Source: Minisyncoccota bacterium (GTDB lineage: Bacteria; Patescibacteriota; Minisyncoccia; Phycocordibacterales; UBA9973). Taken from it: 64,000 bases of DNA. A program made the translations under genes and the position numbers. Under the pieces are notes generated by a model. It did not search any database, was not told where the DNA came from, and worked only from the letters and a program-made list of their open reading frames with translations. Shown one piece after another: positions 3,838-62,761 of this stretch; the stretch's first letter is position 1, and each line of letters starts with the position of its first letter. The stretch lies in contig JBAZKU010000001.1 in the NCBI GenBank assembly GCA_041650615.1, forward strand, positions 386,360 to 450,359. The letters run 5' to 3'.

Positions 3838-3925
3838 CCCGTTAGAAATAGGAAATCTTTAGATTTCCGTAGTTAATTTTAATCATGAATAACCGTTAAA
3901 CTATATGATTTCTAACGGGATCCAT
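3832..3925. mobile_element. MITE-like element, family 1 copy A: 12-bp terminal inverted repeats CCCGTTAGAAAT/ATTTCTAACGGG flanked by direct repeat ATCCAT, fused to the ftsH start codon
   Basis: TIRs at 3838-3849 and 3908-3919; ATCCAT at 3832-3837 and 3920-3925; the left ATCCAT is the reverse complement of the ftsH ATG-GAT. Confidence 0.5.
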
Positions 3926-4156: not shown

Positions 4157-4558
4157 TTGTGGAGATGGGGGGAAATGAGCCCCCGTGCAGAAGGTTTCTG
4201 CAAAAAGATCTACATGCTTAGCGCGCTTTTTGTTTTTAATTGAAAAACTTAAAAACGAGCCAAATATTTTTCAATCGATTCCCTTTGTTTTGGAAAAAAG
4301 CCAGGACTTCTTTTTTCCTATCCCGATAATATTATGCCCAACTCTCATATATCGGAAGTCTATGAGAAGGACATCAGCTTACGCCGAAGCGGAAACTGAA
4401 GCGAAAGCAAAGTCCGCCGAACCGAAGTAAGGAGAAACAATTGCTCTGACTTTAGAAGCTAATTTTGCAATTAACATTTGAACGAATTTTAATGAGATTA
4501 CATTCATTCTCAACATGCATCTTTGCAAGTAGACCCACTGTCTATGCCTTGCATCCCC
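4157..4558 (-). ncRNA. ssrA: tmRNA (SsrA), candidate
   Basis: 12 nt downstream of the smpB stop on the same strand; 5' GGGGAUG pairs with 3' CAUCUCC-A giving the G3:U70 alanine identity wobble; 5' region resembles the E. coli tmRNA tRNA-like/PK1 region (GCAUGUUGAG vs GCAUGCCGAG); T-arm GGGGG-CUCAUUU-CCCCC; internal frame ends ...ADFAFASVSASA-stop; length about 400 nt. Confidence 0.6.
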
Positions 4559-15913: not shown

Positions 15914-15995
15914 ATAGAAAGATTACACAATTTTGGTGAAAAAATCAACCCACACACTTATTTTGGCTATACAAAATAAGTGTGTGGGTCAAGAT

Positions 15996-20777: not shown

Positions 20778-21149
20778 TTAAATTACTTCCGGGGCTAAAG
20801 AAATTATTTTCTGAAATCCTTTTTCAGCAAGTTCTCTTGGAATCGGTCCAAAGACACGTCCAGCTTTTGGATCAAGTTTCCCTTTTTCTAATAAAACTAC
20901 GGCATTGTCGTCAAAACGAATATAAGACCCATCTTTTCTCCTGTAAGCATTTCTGGTACGCACTACCACAGCTTGATGCACATCCTTTTTCTTTACATCT
21001 TTTCTCGGACTAGCAATCTTTACAGAAATAACAACCAAATCTCCAAGGGTTGCATATCTTTTTTTTGAACTGCCTAAAATCTTGAACACTTTGCCTACAG
21101 TGCCTCCTGCATTATCTGTTATTTTTACCAATGTTTCTGTTTGAATCAT
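20778..21149 (-). CDS. rplN: 50S ribosomal protein L14
   Basis: MIQTETLVKITDNAGG. Confidence 0.92.
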   Translation of the reverse strand: MIQTETLVKITDNAGGTVGKVFKILGSSKKRYATLGDLVVISVKIASPRKDVKKKDVHQAVVVRTRNAYRRKDGSYIRFDDNAVVLLEKGKLDPKAGRVFGPIPRELAEKGFQKIISLAPEVI

Positions 21150-21154
21150 ACCTG

Positions 21155-21170
21155 TCCGCCCTTGGCGGAA
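21155..21170. repeat. GC hairpin motif TCCGCCCTTGGCGGAA (family 4), 5 nt upstream of the rplN start
   Basis: Exact 16-mer; gene-strand reading TTCCGCCAAGGGCGGACAGGT-ATG. Confidence 0.5.
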
Positions 21171-31902: not shown

Positions 31903-32325
31903 TTATTTTTTTACTTCTTTTGGTCGTTTATTACCATAAAGAGACCTGCCTTGTCTGCGTTTTTCAACTCCTTGCGTATCTAAAACTCCGCGTACGATAT
32001 GATATCTAACTCCAATTAAATCTTTCACGCGTCCTCCGCGAAGCATTACTACAGAGTGTTCCTGTAAATTATGTCCTTCTCCTGGAATGTAAGCCGTAAC
32101 TTCCATACCATTAGTTAGACGCACTCTGGCAATCTTTCGAAGAGCTGAGTTTGGTTTTTTGGGAGTAGTGGTTGAAACTTTAGTGCAAACACCGCGCTTG
32201 AAAGGAGCCGGAAAAAAGACTGGTCTATTTTTCAAAACGTTAAATCCTCGCGCCAAAGCTACCGTTTTTGATTTCGGGTGAGCTTTTACTCTTTTTCTTT
32301 TAATTAATTGATTGATTGTAGGCAT
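31903..32325 (-). CDS. rpsL: 30S ribosomal protein S12
   Basis: [12 protein letters not shown]..., [10 protein letters not shown]. Confidence 0.95.
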
Positions 32326-32398
32326 CCCAGTACTAAAATTTTATTAATAACCTTTATTTTTATGACCTGTACCCAAAAATTTAGTACGGGACAGGTAT
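32326..32398. repeat. family 2 inverted-repeat leader element (CCCAGTACTAAAATTTTATT ... AAAAATTTAGTACGGGACAGGTAT) fused to the rpsL ATG
   Basis: Near-identical termini repeated at 37986-38096 upstream of rplK; gene-strand end is ...TTTTAGTACTGGG-ATG. Confidence 0.5.
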
Positions 32399-32449
32399 CT
32401 AAATAAAATAGCCCCATAGGACTACGGAAATAATATACTATTTAAAGAG

Positions 32450-33061
32450 TTAAAATGCAAGACCGGTAATTAAATGAAATAAAAAGGTTAAGATTGGATA
32501 TAAAAAGTTAGCAAAAAGGACGATAAAGATAACAATTAAAAAAAGCGAGTATTGTTCAAAAAAAGAAATGGCTTTAAAAAAGGAATTCGGCAGAAGAGAA
32601 AAAAGTATTTTAGAACCATCTAGGGGTGGAATAGGCACTAGATTAAAAATTGCCAATCCTAAATTTATTAGAACAATTGAGGAGATTACGGAAATAAAAT
32701 TAACCGAGACTGCGCTATTGATGGAAAAACGAAGAATAAGGCCAAAGAAAATAGCCATGGAAAGATTTGCCAAAATTCCCGCCGAAGCGACGGCGATAGT
32801 TCCCCATTTTCTATTAGTAAGATTATTCGGATTATATGGCACTGGTTTGGCCCAACCGAATAAAAAAGAAGAATGAGTTAAAATAAGAAATGCCGGTAAA
32901 ATAATAGAACCAAAAATATCCAAATGCTTAAGAGGATTCAGGGTGAGACGTCCAGCATAAAGAGCTGTTTTATCGCCAAAACGCAAAGCAATAAAACCAT
33001 GAGAAACTTCATGGATCACGACAGACATTATAAGTATAACAATAAAAAAGATTGTATCCAT
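32450..33061 (-). CDS. site-2 protease family (M50) zinc metalloprotease, small membrane form
   Basis: HEVSHG zinc motif in a TM helix, multiple TM segments. Confidence 0.7.
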   Translation of the reverse strand: MDTIFFIVILIMSVVIHEVSHGFIALRFGDKTALYAGRLTLNPLKHLDIFGSIILPAFLILTHSSFLFGWAKPVPYNPNNLTNRKWGTIAVASAGILANLSMAIFFGLILRFSINSAVSVNFISVISSIVLINLGLAIFNLVPIPPLDGSKILFSLLPNSFFKAISFFEQYSLFLIVIFIVLFANFLYPILTFLFHLITGLAF

Positions 33062-33117
33062 ATGAATCTAAAAGTTGCGAACCCGTTCTTTCTATGATAG
33101 CATACTAGAACTACAAT

Positions 33118-35916: not shown

Positions 35917-35958
35917 CCCCGAACTAGAGCAAGCTCAGTACGGGGCAGGAAAAATTTT

Positions 35959-37004: not shown

Positions 37005-37490
37005 TTAAATTTTTCTTATATAATTTCTAAAAGGAATTTTTGCCAACCTCAACATTTTTTTTGAAGCTTTTACTATTGGGGTATCTGCGTACTTATCACT
37101 TTCATAAATAACTTCTTTTATTCCATTTTGGATAAGAGTTTTTGTGCATTCATTGCATGGAAACAGAGTACAGTATATTTTGCAATTTGCTGTGGAATTA
37201 TTAGCATTATAAATTGCATTTTCTTCAGCATGGCAGACATAAGCATATTTTGTGTTTTCAAAATCACCTTCTCTTTCCCAAGGAAGATTATCAATCCCAA
37301 TGCCCCTAGGCCAACCATTATATCCGATTCCAAGAACAACATTATTTTTATTAACTACAACTGCCCCTGCTTGAGTAGATGGGTCTGGAGATCTTTCAGC
37401 AATAACATGCGCAATACGCATAAAACATTCATCCCAGGAAATACGCTGTTTGCGAGCTTGTTGTTTTCTTGTTTTAGTAACCTTTTTCAT
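37005..37490 (-). CDS. dCMP deaminase (ComEB-like)
   Basis: CHAEENAI and PCNECTK zinc-binding motifs. Confidence 0.85.
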   Translation of the reverse strand: MKKVTKTRKQQARKQRISWDECFMRIAHVIAERSPDPSTQAGAVVVNKNNVVLGIGYNGWPRGIGIDNLPWEREGDFENTKYAYVCHAEENAIYNANNSTANCKIYCTLFPCNECTKTLIQNGIKEVIYESDKYADTPIVKASKKMLRLAKIPFRNYIRKI

Positions 37491-37559: not shown

Positions 37560-37985
37560 TTAATCTTTAACTTCTATCCCCATTGACCGAGCAGAGCCGG
37601 CGATGATGTTGATAGCCCCTTCTTTATCTTTGGCATTCAAATCTTTCATTTTCTTTTCGGCAATTTCCCAAGCTTGAGCTTTGGTGATTTTTCCGACTTT
37701 TTCGGTAGCATTTTTGCCAGAGCCTTTTTCTATTCCTGCCGCTTTTAAAATAAGCCCTGTAGCCGGAGGAGTTTTTATGACGAAATCATAACTTCGGTCT
37801 TCATAAACCGTAATATTTACGGAAACTTTATCCCCCGCCATTTTAGCAGTCGCCGCATTGAATTTGGTAACAAAGTCTCCTATATTTATCCCTGCTTGTC
37901 CAAGCGCAGGCCCCAACGGTGGTGCCGGAGTCGCTTTAGCAGCTTGGATTTGTAATTTTATCTTTTTTGTTATCTTTTTTGCCAT
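37560..37985 (-). CDS. rplK: 50S ribosomal protein L11
   Basis: [18 protein letters not shown]. Confidence 0.93.
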
Positions 37986-38096
37986 CCCAGTACTAAAATT
38001 TTATTTATAATGAATAATCTTAATCTATACTATTTCCCTTTTTTTGTCTATTTTTTTAATTTTACTTAATCAAAAATTTAATACGGGACAGGTATA
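37986..38096. repeat. family 2 inverted-repeat leader element fused to the rplK ATG (second copy)
   Basis: CCCAGTACTAAAATTTTATTTATAA ... AAAAATTTAATACGGGACAGGTAT; the distal end overlaps the nusG stop. Confidence 0.5.
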
Positions 38097-38099
38097 ATT

Positions 38100-38642
38100 T
38101 TAGACCTTTTTTACTTGTAAAAAGTCTAATTCCACCGGAGTCTCACGACCGAATATTGAAACAAGCACTTTTATTTTTCCACGTTCATTATCAACAGAAT
38201 TTACCTTGCCTTCAAGATCTTTAAAAGGTCCATCCACAATCAAAACTGTTTCATCTATGGCAATATCAATATTGTGTTTAATTGTACCTGTATCCATTTT
38301 CTTAAACAGATATTCAACTTCTTCGCTTTTCAATGGAACTGGATTTACTCCAGCGCCGACGAATCCTGTAACCCGTGGAGTATTGCGAACAACATACCAA
38401 GAATCATCTGTCACAATCATATCCACAAGCACATAGCCAGGATAAATTTTTTCCTCCACTTCCACACGCTTGCCCGCTTTTATTTTTATTTTTTTTTCAA
38501 TTGGTACAATAACATTGAAAATTTTGTCATTCATGCCCAGAGAATCAATACGCTGCTTCAAATTGCGAAGAACAACGTTTTCGTATCCGGCATAAGTATG
38601 GATAGCATACCAATTTCTAGTACCTTGTGTTTCTTGTTTCAT
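38100..38642 (-). CDS. nusG: transcription termination/antitermination factor NusG
   Basis: NGN domain WYAIHTYAGYENVV, KOW motif. Confidence 0.9.
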   Translation of the reverse strand: MKQETQGTRNWYAIHTYAGYENVVLRNLKQRIDSLGMNDKIFNVIVPIEKKIKIKAGKRVEVEEKIYPGYVLVDMIVTDDSWYVVRNTPRVTGFVGAGVNPVPLKSEEVEYLFKKMDTGTIKHNIDIAIDETVLIVDGPFKDLEGKVNSVDNERGKIKVLVSIFGRETPVELDFLQVKKV

Positions 38643-39698: not shown

Positions 39699-39807
39699 CC
39701 CGTTTAGAAATCATACTATTTATACACATATTTTTATATATAAAAATAGTTGATTTATATTAAATTTATAACTTATTCCCGTTTTGTAAATTTCTAACGG
39801 GATTCAT
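39693..39807. mobile_element. MITE-like element, family 1 copy B: TIRs CCCGTTTAGAAAT/ATTTCTAACGGG, direct repeat ATTCAT, fused to the SIMPL gene start
   Basis: ATTCAT at 39693-39698 and 39802-39807; TIRs 39699-39711 and 39790-39801. Confidence 0.5.
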
Positions 39808-51450: not shown

Positions 51451-51521
51451 CCCGTTAGAAATCTTAATATTTATAATTTTTTCTTTTTATTTCCCGTTAG
51501 TGAATTTCTAACGGGATCCAT
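51445..51521. mobile_element. MITE-like element, family 1 copy C: TIRs CCCGTTAGAAAT/ATTTCTAACGGG, flanks TTCCAT/ATCCAT
   Basis: TIRs 51451-51462 and 51504-51515; inner hairpin CCCGTTAG-TGAATTT-CTAACGGG. Confidence 0.5.
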
Positions 51522-53702: not shown

Positions 53703-53714
53703 TAGAATATTATA

Positions 53715-53752
53715 CCCCGTAGTGAAACTTTTAACAAAGTTCTACTACAGGG
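53715..53752. promoter_or_regulatory. family 3 inverted repeat CCCCGTAGTGAAACTTT-N5-AAAGTTCTACTACAGGG abutting the pilM -10 box
   Basis: Related to the 34919-34999 palindrome upstream of thyA; TATAAT (minus strand) at 53709-53714. Confidence 0.5.
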
Positions 53753-54550: not shown

Positions 54551-54622
54551 ACCCCCACACTTATATTTGCAATACAACTTCGTTGCGCGCCTTTGGCGCT
54601 TTGCAAATATAAGTGTGGGGGT
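54551..54622. promoter_or_regulatory. 22-bp perfect inverted repeat ACCCCCACACTTATATTTGCAA/TTGCAAATATAAGTGTGGGGGT around a GC hairpin GCGCGCCTTTGGCGC, in the divergent ruvX / 54657 promoter region
   Basis: Read directly; the GTGTGGGGG motif recurs at 56976 and, reverse-complemented, at 9991. Confidence 0.5.
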
Positions 54623-56904: not shown

Positions 56905-56994
56905 GGGATTTATCGGCTACTAACTAGATTTAAAACAGGGGTTGGGGTATGCCCCTATTTTGAATAAAATAGGTGTGGGGGTATAATTATACTA

Positions 56995-62697: not shown

Positions 62698-62761
62698 ATT
62701 ATTAGTAATTATTAATTAATCCCAGTAGTAGAGCAAAGCTCACTACAGGACAAGTAAAAAA

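Follow-up and report, generated by a model that had tools for sequence, protein, structure and literature searches.

The 64-kb window analysed here, by which we mean the whole 64,000-nucleotide stretch of the Minisyncoccota bacterium contig JBAZKU010000001.1, contains the genes rpsL and rplK, both of which open directly behind a copy of a short sequence with inverted-repeat arms, called the cassette in the following. It fills the space from the start codon to the stop codon of the upstream gene at nusG-rplK, and to the transcription start or an older leader at rpsL. The features of the two loci are listed below in window coordinates.

31903..32325, minus strand: rpsL (S12), the open reading frame (ORF) that opens at the arm-adjoining ATG
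32326..32396, minus strand: short-class cassette at rpsL, 71 nt from ACCTG to CTGGG; its 3' end is position -1 of the rpsL ATG
32326..32342, minus strand: 3' (proximal) arm of the rpsL copy, AAAATTTTAGTACTGGG, with the ATG at 32323-32325 directly after it
32365..32374, minus strand: local competitor GGGTACAGGT, which pairs with ACCTGTCCC (32388-32396) in the predicted minimum-free-energy fold of the rpsL copy
32374..32392, minus strand: 5' (distal) arm of the rpsL copy, GTCCCGTACTAAATTTTTG, a 19-mer identical in at least 118 metagenome contigs
32408..32425, minus strand: ancestral rpsL leader hairpin and U-run, kept in relatives, where the ATG lies ~11-20 nt further
32432..32460, minus strand: promoter-like TTGCAT-N17-TATATT, kept upstream of rpsL in relatives, read by eye and by comparison of relatives
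37560..37985, minus strand: rplK (L11), the ORF that opens at the arm-adjoining ATG
37986..38093, minus strand: long-class cassette at rplK, 108 nt from ACCTG to CTGGG; its 3' end is position -1 of the rplK ATG
37986..38002, minus strand: 3' arm of the rplK copy, AAAATTTTAGTACTGGG, with the ATG at 37983-37985 directly after it
38022..38050, minus strand: promoter-like TAGACA-N17-TAGATT in the loop of the rplK copy, a consensus match only
38071..38089, minus strand: 5' arm of the rplK copy, GTCCCGTATTAAATTTTTG, a U variant that would form a G.U pair with the 3' arm
38100..38642, minus strand: nusG, the cistron upstream of rplK, with its stop codon TAA at 38100-38102

An exact search of the window places the 20-mer AAAATTTTAGTACTGGGATG, which is AAAATTTTAGTACTGGG plus ATG, at 32323-32342 and 37983-38002, and the 25-mer ATACCTGTCCCGTAYTAAATTTTTG at 32374-32398 and 38071-38095, all on the minus strand. 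Each arm has two matches in the window and still two when 3 mismatches are allowed, with an expectation of 0 in shuffled sequence. This agrees with an earlier note on the window, which had described an arm abutting the ATG of both genes and, upstream of it, its imperfect inverse; the arms measure ~20 nt, and ~15-18 bp of pairing are possible, with two single-base bulges. Two details of that note need correction. The distal arm does not overlap the nusG stop codon, since ATACCT begins at 38095, 4 nt beyond the TAA, and the rplK copy itself begins 6 nt past it. Furthermore, the 10-mer thought to lie 5 nt before the rplN start sits on the opposite strand (21148-21157, plus strand); as GGACAGGT|ATG on the gene strand, it overlaps the rplN start codon. 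Because GGACAGGTATG was not found in 212 loci, we hold this link to be probably due to chance.

How widespread is this arrangement? JGI metagenome contigs were scanned with the exact 19-nt distal arm GTCCCGTAYTAAATTTTTG, which is present in at least 118 contigs; all copy counts given from here on are among the matches listed. The distal arm is fixed by this query, while the proximal arm was not part of it and is hence unascertained. It nevertheless follows downstream in 120 of 122 distal-arm occurrences, corresponding to 116 unique copies, and is the identical 17-mer AAAATTTTAGTACTGGG in 80 of these. An ATG that opens a long ORF stands directly after the proximal arm in 109 of the 116 copies (94%), and these 109 precede at least 80 different genes, most of them non-ribosomal. 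By their N-terminal sequences we take the downstream ORFs to include rodA/ftsW-like, DHFR (folA), DnaB, Ddl, ClpP, SerRS, GatA, EF-P, LepA and SecY, and further presumably RRF, trigger factor, PheT, RNase H, ABC ATPases and several ribosomal proteins. Extra copies at random non-genic sites, which would have pointed to a plain transposable repeat, were looked for; the extra copies lie almost all at gene starts. A solitary 19-mer identical to the distal arm in a phage (L210, L211 and L212 from IMG/VR, one phage), just upstream of a RuvC-like gene, has neither the ACYT head nor a proximal arm and is probably a chance match.

The anatomy of the cassette is well defined by these copies. The letters ACYT before the query are nearly invariant (A in 107/112, C in 107/112 and T in 110/112) and are therefore part of the element, whose left end reads (T)ACYTG. 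Measured from GTCCCG to GGG, 83 of the 116 copies are 67-72 nt long and form the short class, whereas 32 measure 88-109 nt, mostly 101-105 nt, and form the long class; one outlier has 175 nt. The length of the long class is kept though the interiors are barely alignable. Locus L195 has an orthologous long-class copy between nusG and rplK with an interior that is ~80% similar, and this copy holds a TAGACA-N16/17-TATAGAT promoter-like block common to L163 and L206. If the corresponding block in the rplK copy of the window were used, the resulting transcript would be without the 5' arm. Forty of the 116 copies have an upstream ORF (uORF) of fixed geometry in the loop: in 27 the ATG is usually at -40 and ~10 codons (MxIINKNLKF) run to a UAG that belongs to the 3' arm and precedes the main AUG by 7 nt, and in the other 13 the uORF overlaps the main start as AUGA. 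These uORFs are commoner in operon-internal copies (31/59 vs 7/43). In four copies (L130, L164, L171 and L172) a loop-started ORF reads through the 3' arm into the protein, and the read-through (...KILVLGLI...) is the N-terminal hydrophobic segment of that protein. L166 (minus strand, ~393-411) has a canonical AAGGAG-N7-ATG in place of the 3' arm.

The two junctions of the cassette behave differently. At the 3' junction the distance to the ATG is a constant 0 nt, while the 5' junction is variable. Of 102 testable copies, 59 have a long co-directional ORF with its stop between -1 and 8 nt before the first A of the element, so that the cassette constitutes the whole intercistronic spacer, as at nusG-rplK. 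Of the 43 remaining copies, 14 have an extended -10 box (TGnTAnnnT) 5-7 nt before the first A, so that the transcription start would fall on the first base of the element; the same spacing separates the -10 box from the ATG in leaderless genes of the window genome. The orientation is always single, with the arm that carries the extra A (reverse complement CCCAGTAC...) touching the ATG. No gene start abuts the ACYTG end in the listed copies, and divergent ORFs start at least 18 nt away. When start-like ATGs preceded by GGG were collected from the window and the loci, 111 of 123 had an inverse of the upstream 12-mer 30-150 nt upstream, compared to 5% of other starts and 2-5% of other ATGs; this test is biased by the seeded copies and includes other families of elements. 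For annotation, a GGG-ATG preceded by the proximal arm marks true start codons.

We then have to ask whether the position is conserved by descent, as would be expected if a ribosomal protein (L1, L11, S7 or S12) bound a hairpin containing the rpsL or rplK start codon and regulated its own synthesis. Both window copies precede ribosomal-protein genes, and some copies elsewhere are found before rplQ, rpsI, rpsQ, rplM, rplE and rpsP. Syntenic relatives (secE-nusG-rplK ... rpmB-M50 peptidase-rpsL) were retrieved via NusG at 89-95% identity. Their nusG-rplK spacers of 25, 43, 96 or 176 nt consist of unrelated AT-rich sequence, and their rpsL leaders contain a TTGCA(A/T)-N17-TATAKT promoter, the hairpin AGAGTCYTTGGRCTCT, a U-run, and 11-20 nt to the ATG. 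The window has the same promoter and hairpin, and the cassette is inserted between this ancestral hairpin with its U-run and the ATG: the 71-nt element lies between ...TTTATTTAGAT and ATG where L213 has ...TTGTTTTAGTC|ATG. A covariance model of the cassette, R1, whose top match is the rpsL copy (89 bits), found nothing at the rpsL and rplK leaders of 21 related loci. Among GTDB species representatives, the best of which are 81-86% identical in rpsL, none has the element at this gene, and the ordinary Paceibacterota rpsL leader was seen. Rfam 15 gave no match to the element, neither in the window at gathering score nor at both sites with E up to 10, where only the tmRNA, tRNAs and noise appeared and no ribosomal-protein leader. 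Moreover, most copies precede non-ribosomal genes (rodA, folA, dnaB, ddl, clpP, serS, gatA, efp, lepA, secY), and rplA is not beside rplK in this lineage; in the window and in relatives a dCMP deaminase gene (37005-37490, minus strand), not rplA, follows rplK. Autoregulation, which the earlier note had offered as one of two explanations, is thus contradicted at orthologous leaders as well as by the range of downstream genes, and we regard it as extremely improbable. Dispersal and the near-constant start-codon junction before any gene argue for a mobile leader element and not for a ribosomal-protein regulator, and such cassettes should not be taken for gene-specific riboswitches or ribosomal-protein leaders in annotation.

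The comparison of orthologous sites supports mobility. The rpsL site is filled in the window and empty in L213, L083 and L088; the rplK site is filled in the window and in L195 and empty in L213, L087, L088 and L083; and rpmB has a sister element, ACAGTGTCCCGTTAAAAAATC...TTTTTTAATGGG|ATG, in L083 and L216 but none in the window, L213 or L087. At the filled and empty sites of all three genes the flanks align up to the ATG. From these alignments we conclude that the element inserts. Within genomes, two of three contigs with two short-class copies have private interior signatures common to both copies; within a contig the interior identity is 0.97 (L110), 0.94 (L151) or 0.75 (L099), while between contigs it averages 0.70, with the 95th percentile at 0.91. 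In L087 (14420-14472) a different, unrelated insertion of 47 nt lies directly before the rpsL ATG, and insertions seem to recur at this spot on the 5' side of the rpsL start. The hairpin and U-run of the rpsL leader have the form (A)AGAGTCYTTGGRCTCT + UUUUGUUUU in L083, L087, L088 and L213 and a terminator-like score in the window; their role could be to stabilise the 5' end or to attenuate the str operon. The consensus promoter scan did not list the TTGCAT-N17-TATATT sequence at 32432..32460.

The element of rpsL and rplK, termed family 2, has relatives that also end at start codons.

3838-3919, minus strand: family 1 element, CCCGTTAGAAAT...ATTTCTAACGGG, before ftsH
39699-39801, minus strand: family 1 element before the SIMPL/DUF541 gene
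51451-51515, minus strand: family 1 element before a 101-aa ORF
L083 15139-15217, minus strand: third family, ACAGTG TCCCGTTAAAAAATC...TTTTTTAATGGG ATG, before rpmB; the empty counterpart is window 33062-33117

Because the termini TCCCGT.../...GGGA are common to them, families 1, 2 and 3 are taken as one superfamily. R1 detects the family 1 copies weakly (34.7 bits, E = 2e-4). In ~11 of 14 family 1 copies (3 from the window and 11 from the loci) the five bases left of TCCCG equal the first five of the ORF (ATGGA, ATGAA, ATGAG or ATGTA), and this ATGNN repeat is like a target-site duplication. All three elements of the window have it, as ATGGA or ATGAA. The upstream ATGNN copy opens a short uORF (MDPVRN...). 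Before ftsH this copy lies 8 nt after TGcTATAAT, and the two together look like a former leaderless start. Short compact hairpins of related sequence, CCCnGTAGTAGAG...CTCACTACnGG, are found at 62720-62749 (plus strand), 35917-35945 (plus strand) and 53708-53742 (minus strand), where they precede a gene start by 10-15 nt or stand immediately ahead of a -10 box. R1 matches one of the hairpins weakly (62715-62757, 23.9 bits), and they may be further relatives or remnants. The earlier note's other explanation, a related MITE family (miniature inverted-repeat transposable elements), thus holds as far as a dispersed, insertion-polymorphic inverted repeat with a detectable link to family 1 is concerned. 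The cassette differs from a plain MITE in being flush with start codons in nearly all listed copies, in its single orientation and in having no clear target-site duplication.

Is the cassette then purely selfish, without any role in expression? In that case the arms would be terminal inverted repeats, kept intact as the copies are young or are still transposase substrates, and ATG would be the target, the other ATGs of compact genomes lying inside essential genes. The inverted termini, small size, dispersal, two size classes and filled and empty sites are what one expects of such an element, and so are the common signatures of copies within a genome, the high coding density and the ATGNN repeat of family 1, which resembles a classic target duplication. 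Against this stands the conservation of the arms. In 18 clusters of orthologous genes (41 copies) that have the element in diverged genomes, the first 80 codons were compared; amino-acid identity is 50-79% in most pairs (95% in one) and third-position identity averages 0.48, near saturation. Over the same clusters the proximal arm is 0.97 identical, the interior 0.72 and the 30 nt upstream 0.66, and arms at orthologous sites are 97-100% conserved. When 887 kb of loci were searched starting from proximal arms, essentially every copy had an intact distal arm, and a single further copy was mildly degenerate; a copy is thus either intact or missing, and virtually no decayed ones are seen. Intergenic ATGs should be targets as well, yet 109 of the 116 copies are at real starts, and the orientation is strictly single. 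Furthermore, family 2 has a low copy number per genome and no target duplication, and its loci yielded no autonomous partner. On balance we find a purely selfish element unlikely. If it were one, it would be an unusual repeat with start-codon specificity and strict orientation in very small genomes with few known transposases.

The host context is relevant to what the cassette might do. The host has a G+C content of ~36%. A GGAG, GAGG or AGGA motif occurs at -20 to -5 in 11 of 84 ORFs, compared to 8% of random 16-mers, so Shine-Dalgarno (SD) usage is low in the window, and many genes of the window appear leaderless (TATAAT-N6-7-ATG). Parcubacteria that lack uL1 are reported to be mostly without an anti-SD sequence (PMC9297842); the missing rplA neighbour and the low SD usage in the window are consistent with the host belonging to this subgroup. 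NusG has hundreds of relatives at 88-95% identity, named at the source as Nomurabacteria, Parcubacteria or Paceibacterota, and the host group of the cassette appears to be Parcubacteria (Paceibacterota, Nomurabacteria-like) in which rplA does not adjoin rplK; for the metagenome contigs this taxonomy is derived from gene content. The ENA contig ERZ27247363:k141_2392653 is identical to the window, and a JGI contig that is 99.3% identical has both cassette copies unchanged (exact look-up of the S12 protein); this strain is uninformative on polymorphism because the element is present in both contigs. The genes rplJ, rplL, rpoB and rpoC do not lie between rplK and rpsL in the window. The tmRNA gene lies at 4157-4558 (minus strand, 114 bits), and the ftsH family 1 element is ~240 nt downstream on the same strand. 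The sequence ATAAGTGTGGGGGT is found directly 5' of -10-like boxes at several promoters (54551-54622; 56973-56982, plus strand; 15948-15989), and between the two divergent genes at 54551-54622 it makes up a perfect inverted repeat of 22 nt. It is perhaps a motif associated with promoters or bound by a regulator.

The short-class consensus is predicted to fold into a ~21-bp stem with two bulges, at -18 to -20 kcal/mol and z of about -4, from the 5' strand UCCCGUACUAAA.UUUUUGAUUA and the 3' strand UAAUUAAAA.UUUUAGUAC.UGGGA. The A of AUG is paired in this fold, U.G and G.U pairs are possible for the other two bases, and the U-G-U of the left end could pair with A-U-G. For the rplK copy the long-range stem is within the minimum-energy fold. 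For the rpsL copy the predicted minimum is a local hairpin of ACCUGUCCC with GGGUACAGGU at -16.4 kcal/mol, and the long-range stem is the centroid. A comparable competitor hairpin (GUCCCGUA/UACGGGGC) is possible in about half of the short copies. In 14 family-1-like copies, five arm positions change on both sides with complementarity kept. In family 2, one pair changes from C:G to U:A on both arms (3 copies), with U.G intermediates in 3 copies and C.A breaks in 2. This pattern supports pairing or two-fold symmetry, and is compatible both with an RNA stem and with two ends bound by one protein.

Taking dispersal, insertion and hairpin together, we think it rather probable that the rpsL and rplK sites are copies of a mobile, MITE-like cassette of ~70 or ~105 nt that occurs in many SD-poor Parcubacteria, and that its hairpin would gate translation of the downstream gene. 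We propose the following mechanism. The cassette would be transcribed as the whole 5' untranslated region or the whole intercistronic spacer. In the mRNA, the 5' arm UGUCCCGUACUAAAUUUUUGAUUA would pair with the 3' arm UAAUUAAAAUUUUAGUACUGGG-AUG to give a ~20-bp bulged hairpin with the start codon in its base, and in a host with little SD use the downstream gene would be translated only if the stem is open. When a ribosome on the upstream cistron terminates 4-12 nt ahead of the stem, it could cover or unwind the 5' arm, which would free the AU-rich 3' arm and the AUG. Such RNA-unfolding translational coupling is an established model, with a documented +52-nt case at rpmI-rplT (PMC12548453). Alternatively, the stem might be opened by translation of the 10-codon loop uORF, stopping 7 nt before the AUG, or by the competing local hairpin capturing the 5' arm. 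The geometry for coupling is present where the upstream stop lies -1 to 8 nt before the element, as described above for more than half of the testable copies, with the 3' arm ending at the AUG; that downstream translation depends on upstream translation is proposed from this geometry.

Several observations weigh against this proposal. We infer the transcription of the cassette, its folding in vivo and its effect on translation from sequence and predicted structure. The copy number per genome is apparently low, with few copies each, which is atypical of MITEs. A target-site duplication of family 2 was not found, as the left flank is ACYTG throughout and bears no relation to the first bases of the ORF. 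Three candidates were rejected: ATACCT (cf. the rpsL start ATGCCT) is also present at rplK, which starts with ATGGCA, and is hence part of the element; TG does not fit the empty sites; and AT at -6/-5 is only enriched, occurring in 35% of family 2 copies against a background of 14.5%. In ~0.9 Mb of loci, no arm pair 250-4000 nt apart encloses a transposase-sized segment, such pairs being only pairs of separate small elements, and no Y1 transposase was seen in the loci examined. Covariation within family 2 is minimal, partly because the copies were found via an exact distal arm, and one-sided arm changes are not clearly biased towards G.U (8 wobble vs 6 broken). The long hairpin suggested by the earlier note stands for the consensus element, which folds significantly, and not for the two window copies, neither of which beats shuffles (z = -1.15 and -1.4). 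Since 46 of the 116 copies have no loop ATG and about half of the short class no competitor hairpin, no single opening route covers all copies. A complementarity of the 3' arm to 16S rRNA was also sought, the loci containing no 16S rRNA. Finally, the near-invariant arm sequence exceeds what a structural hairpin needs, and protein recognition by a transposase, nuclease or regulator fits at least as well.

This last point leads to the idea that the cassette carries a cis-acting site for a sequence-specific trans factor that recognizes the RNA duplex. The factor could be an RNase III-type enzyme, cutting between cistrons and leaving a short AU-rich leader on the downstream gene, or the site could be an operator for a global RNA- or DNA-binding regulator. 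The ~20-bp bulged duplex with invariant sequence and bulges, its intercistronic placement and a sequence conservation above structural need would fit, and the Correia elements of Neisseria are MITEs bound by RNase III and either cut or protected (PMC2649163). By analogy it is plausible that the ~21-bp duplex is an RNase III substrate. On the other hand, no factor was identified, the set of carrier genes differs between genomes, which is odd for a regulon, and processing needs no flush contact with the AUG. We therefore judge recognition by such a factor to be a fairly improbable main role.

A different possibility is that the mobile element targets the spot directly 5' of start codons and is built to be translationally 'invisible'. 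Its paired ends would bring the upstream stop codon, or the mRNA 5' end of a once leaderless gene, beside the AUG, and in bacteria with little SD pairing leaderless initiation as well as termination-reinitiation could still work across the insertion, by stem-base shunting or by ribosome-driven unfolding. We give this a minor chance. If true, it would show how SD-poor Parcubacteria select their start codons and would make the cassette the first known start-codon-homing repeat element.

Could the arms act solely in the DNA, as a recombination site, an attC-like hairpin, an uptake signal or a promoter/operator pair, with no role in RNA? The inverted repeat is imperfect, its extrahelical bases are conserved and its centre varies between discrete lengths, which makes it superficially similar to attC, and -10-like boxes are present in the 3' arm (TAAAAT) and at the left border. 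However, the ends ACYTGTCCCG and CTGGG are without the R''/R' cores of integron attC sites (RYYYAAC/GTTRRRY), and the flanking genes are core genes in conserved synteny and not cassettes, so we rejected the integron assignment. With few copies per genome the density is far below that of an uptake signal, the promoter matches are no better than in shuffles, and a DNA-level site would not need to touch the ATG. Such a site is very unlikely to be what the arms represent. Two narrower assignments were also dismissed: a sigma-54 or extracytoplasmic function (ECF) promoter in the distal arm, on sequence, density or context, and an intrinsic terminator, as the stem is followed by AUG and coding sequence and the terminator scan lists none at either cassette.

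Bacteria of the candidate phyla radiation are uncultured and their gene expression is little known. Here, one portable sequence makes up all of the 5' leader, or all of the intercistronic spacer, of many essential genes that are unrelated to each other. If functional, it would provide a handle on SD-independent initiation and translational coupling, and possibly a ready-made expression part.

The cassette works like a MITE, and the closest known system is the Correia elements (CREE/NEMIS) of Neisseria. These have a 26-bp Correia repeat and an IHF site, duplicate the dinucleotide TA and reach hundreds of copies per genome. They are non-coding, ~100-150 bp long with terminal inverted repeats, occur in two size classes and are co-transcribed with adjacent genes; they can act as a source of promoters, and RNase III binds the hairpin in their RNA (PMC2649163). 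The cassette, too, comes in two size classes, with a long hairpin and, in some copies, a promoter-like block in its interior. In contrast to Correia elements, which are not flush with start codons, it ends at position -1 of the ATG in 94% of the listed copies, has a fixed orientation, few copies per genome and no clear duplication, that of TA included, and shows no sequence similarity, its termini being TCCCGT.../...GGGA and its host not being Neisseria. Other bacterial MITEs such as ERIC, RUP and Nezha (PMC3184786, PMC10969869) are also small, dispersed and insertion-polymorphic, with inverted repeats and no transposase coding, but three defining or typical features, namely target duplication, a cognate insertion sequence and high copy number, were not seen for the cassette in the loci searched. 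In the 2024 MITE review (PMC10969869) the terms 'start codon' and 'Patescibacteria' do not occur, neither Rfam nor the literature searched on Parcubacteria/Patescibacteria yielded a description of such an element, and in these sources we did not find a flush, oriented association with start codons described for MITEs.

The ribosomal-protein leaders, such as the L1-binding rplK leader and the S7 site of the str operon, resemble the cassette in position and in a hairpin that includes the initiation region. They differ in that the cassette is not conserved orthologously, also precedes genes other than those of ribosomal proteins, and has neither rRNA mimicry nor an Rfam match. Repetitive extragenic palindromes and their mosaics (REP/BIME, mobilized by RAYT transposases) and palindromes derived from IS200/IS605 are intergenic in operons, make no target duplication and have their orientation fixed to a short flanking motif. 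REP/BIME units are 20-40 nt long, GC-rich and numerous, with a GTAG-type head, and usually lie after stop codons, whereas the cassette is AT-rich, 70-105 nt long, anchored at start codons and of low copy number. In the shunt devices of cauliflower mosaic virus 35S RNA, the T4 gene 60 hop and the 'byp' elements of Magnusiomyces mitochondria, a stable hairpin juxtaposes the take-off point and the landing codon, and byps are mobile hairpins tolerated since ribosomes skip them. The hairpin base of the cassette would similarly put the stop just upstream next to the start codon just downstream; the cassette lies between ORFs and not inside them, and ribosome skipping serves as an analogy.

In structure-mediated coupling, the start region is sequestered by a segment that the upstream ribosome covers or unwinds, and a spacing of ~+50 nt works (PMC12548453). 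The cassette is comparable to the RNA-unfolding cases of rpmI-rplT and MS2 coat-lysis in that its 5' arm lies 4-12 nt from the upstream stop and its 3' arm ends at the AUG. It differs from them in being found also at transcript 5' ends without an upstream cistron. Moreover, the known coupling structures are gene-specific and evolved in place, whereas the cassette would represent one portable sequence that serves many unrelated gene pairs.

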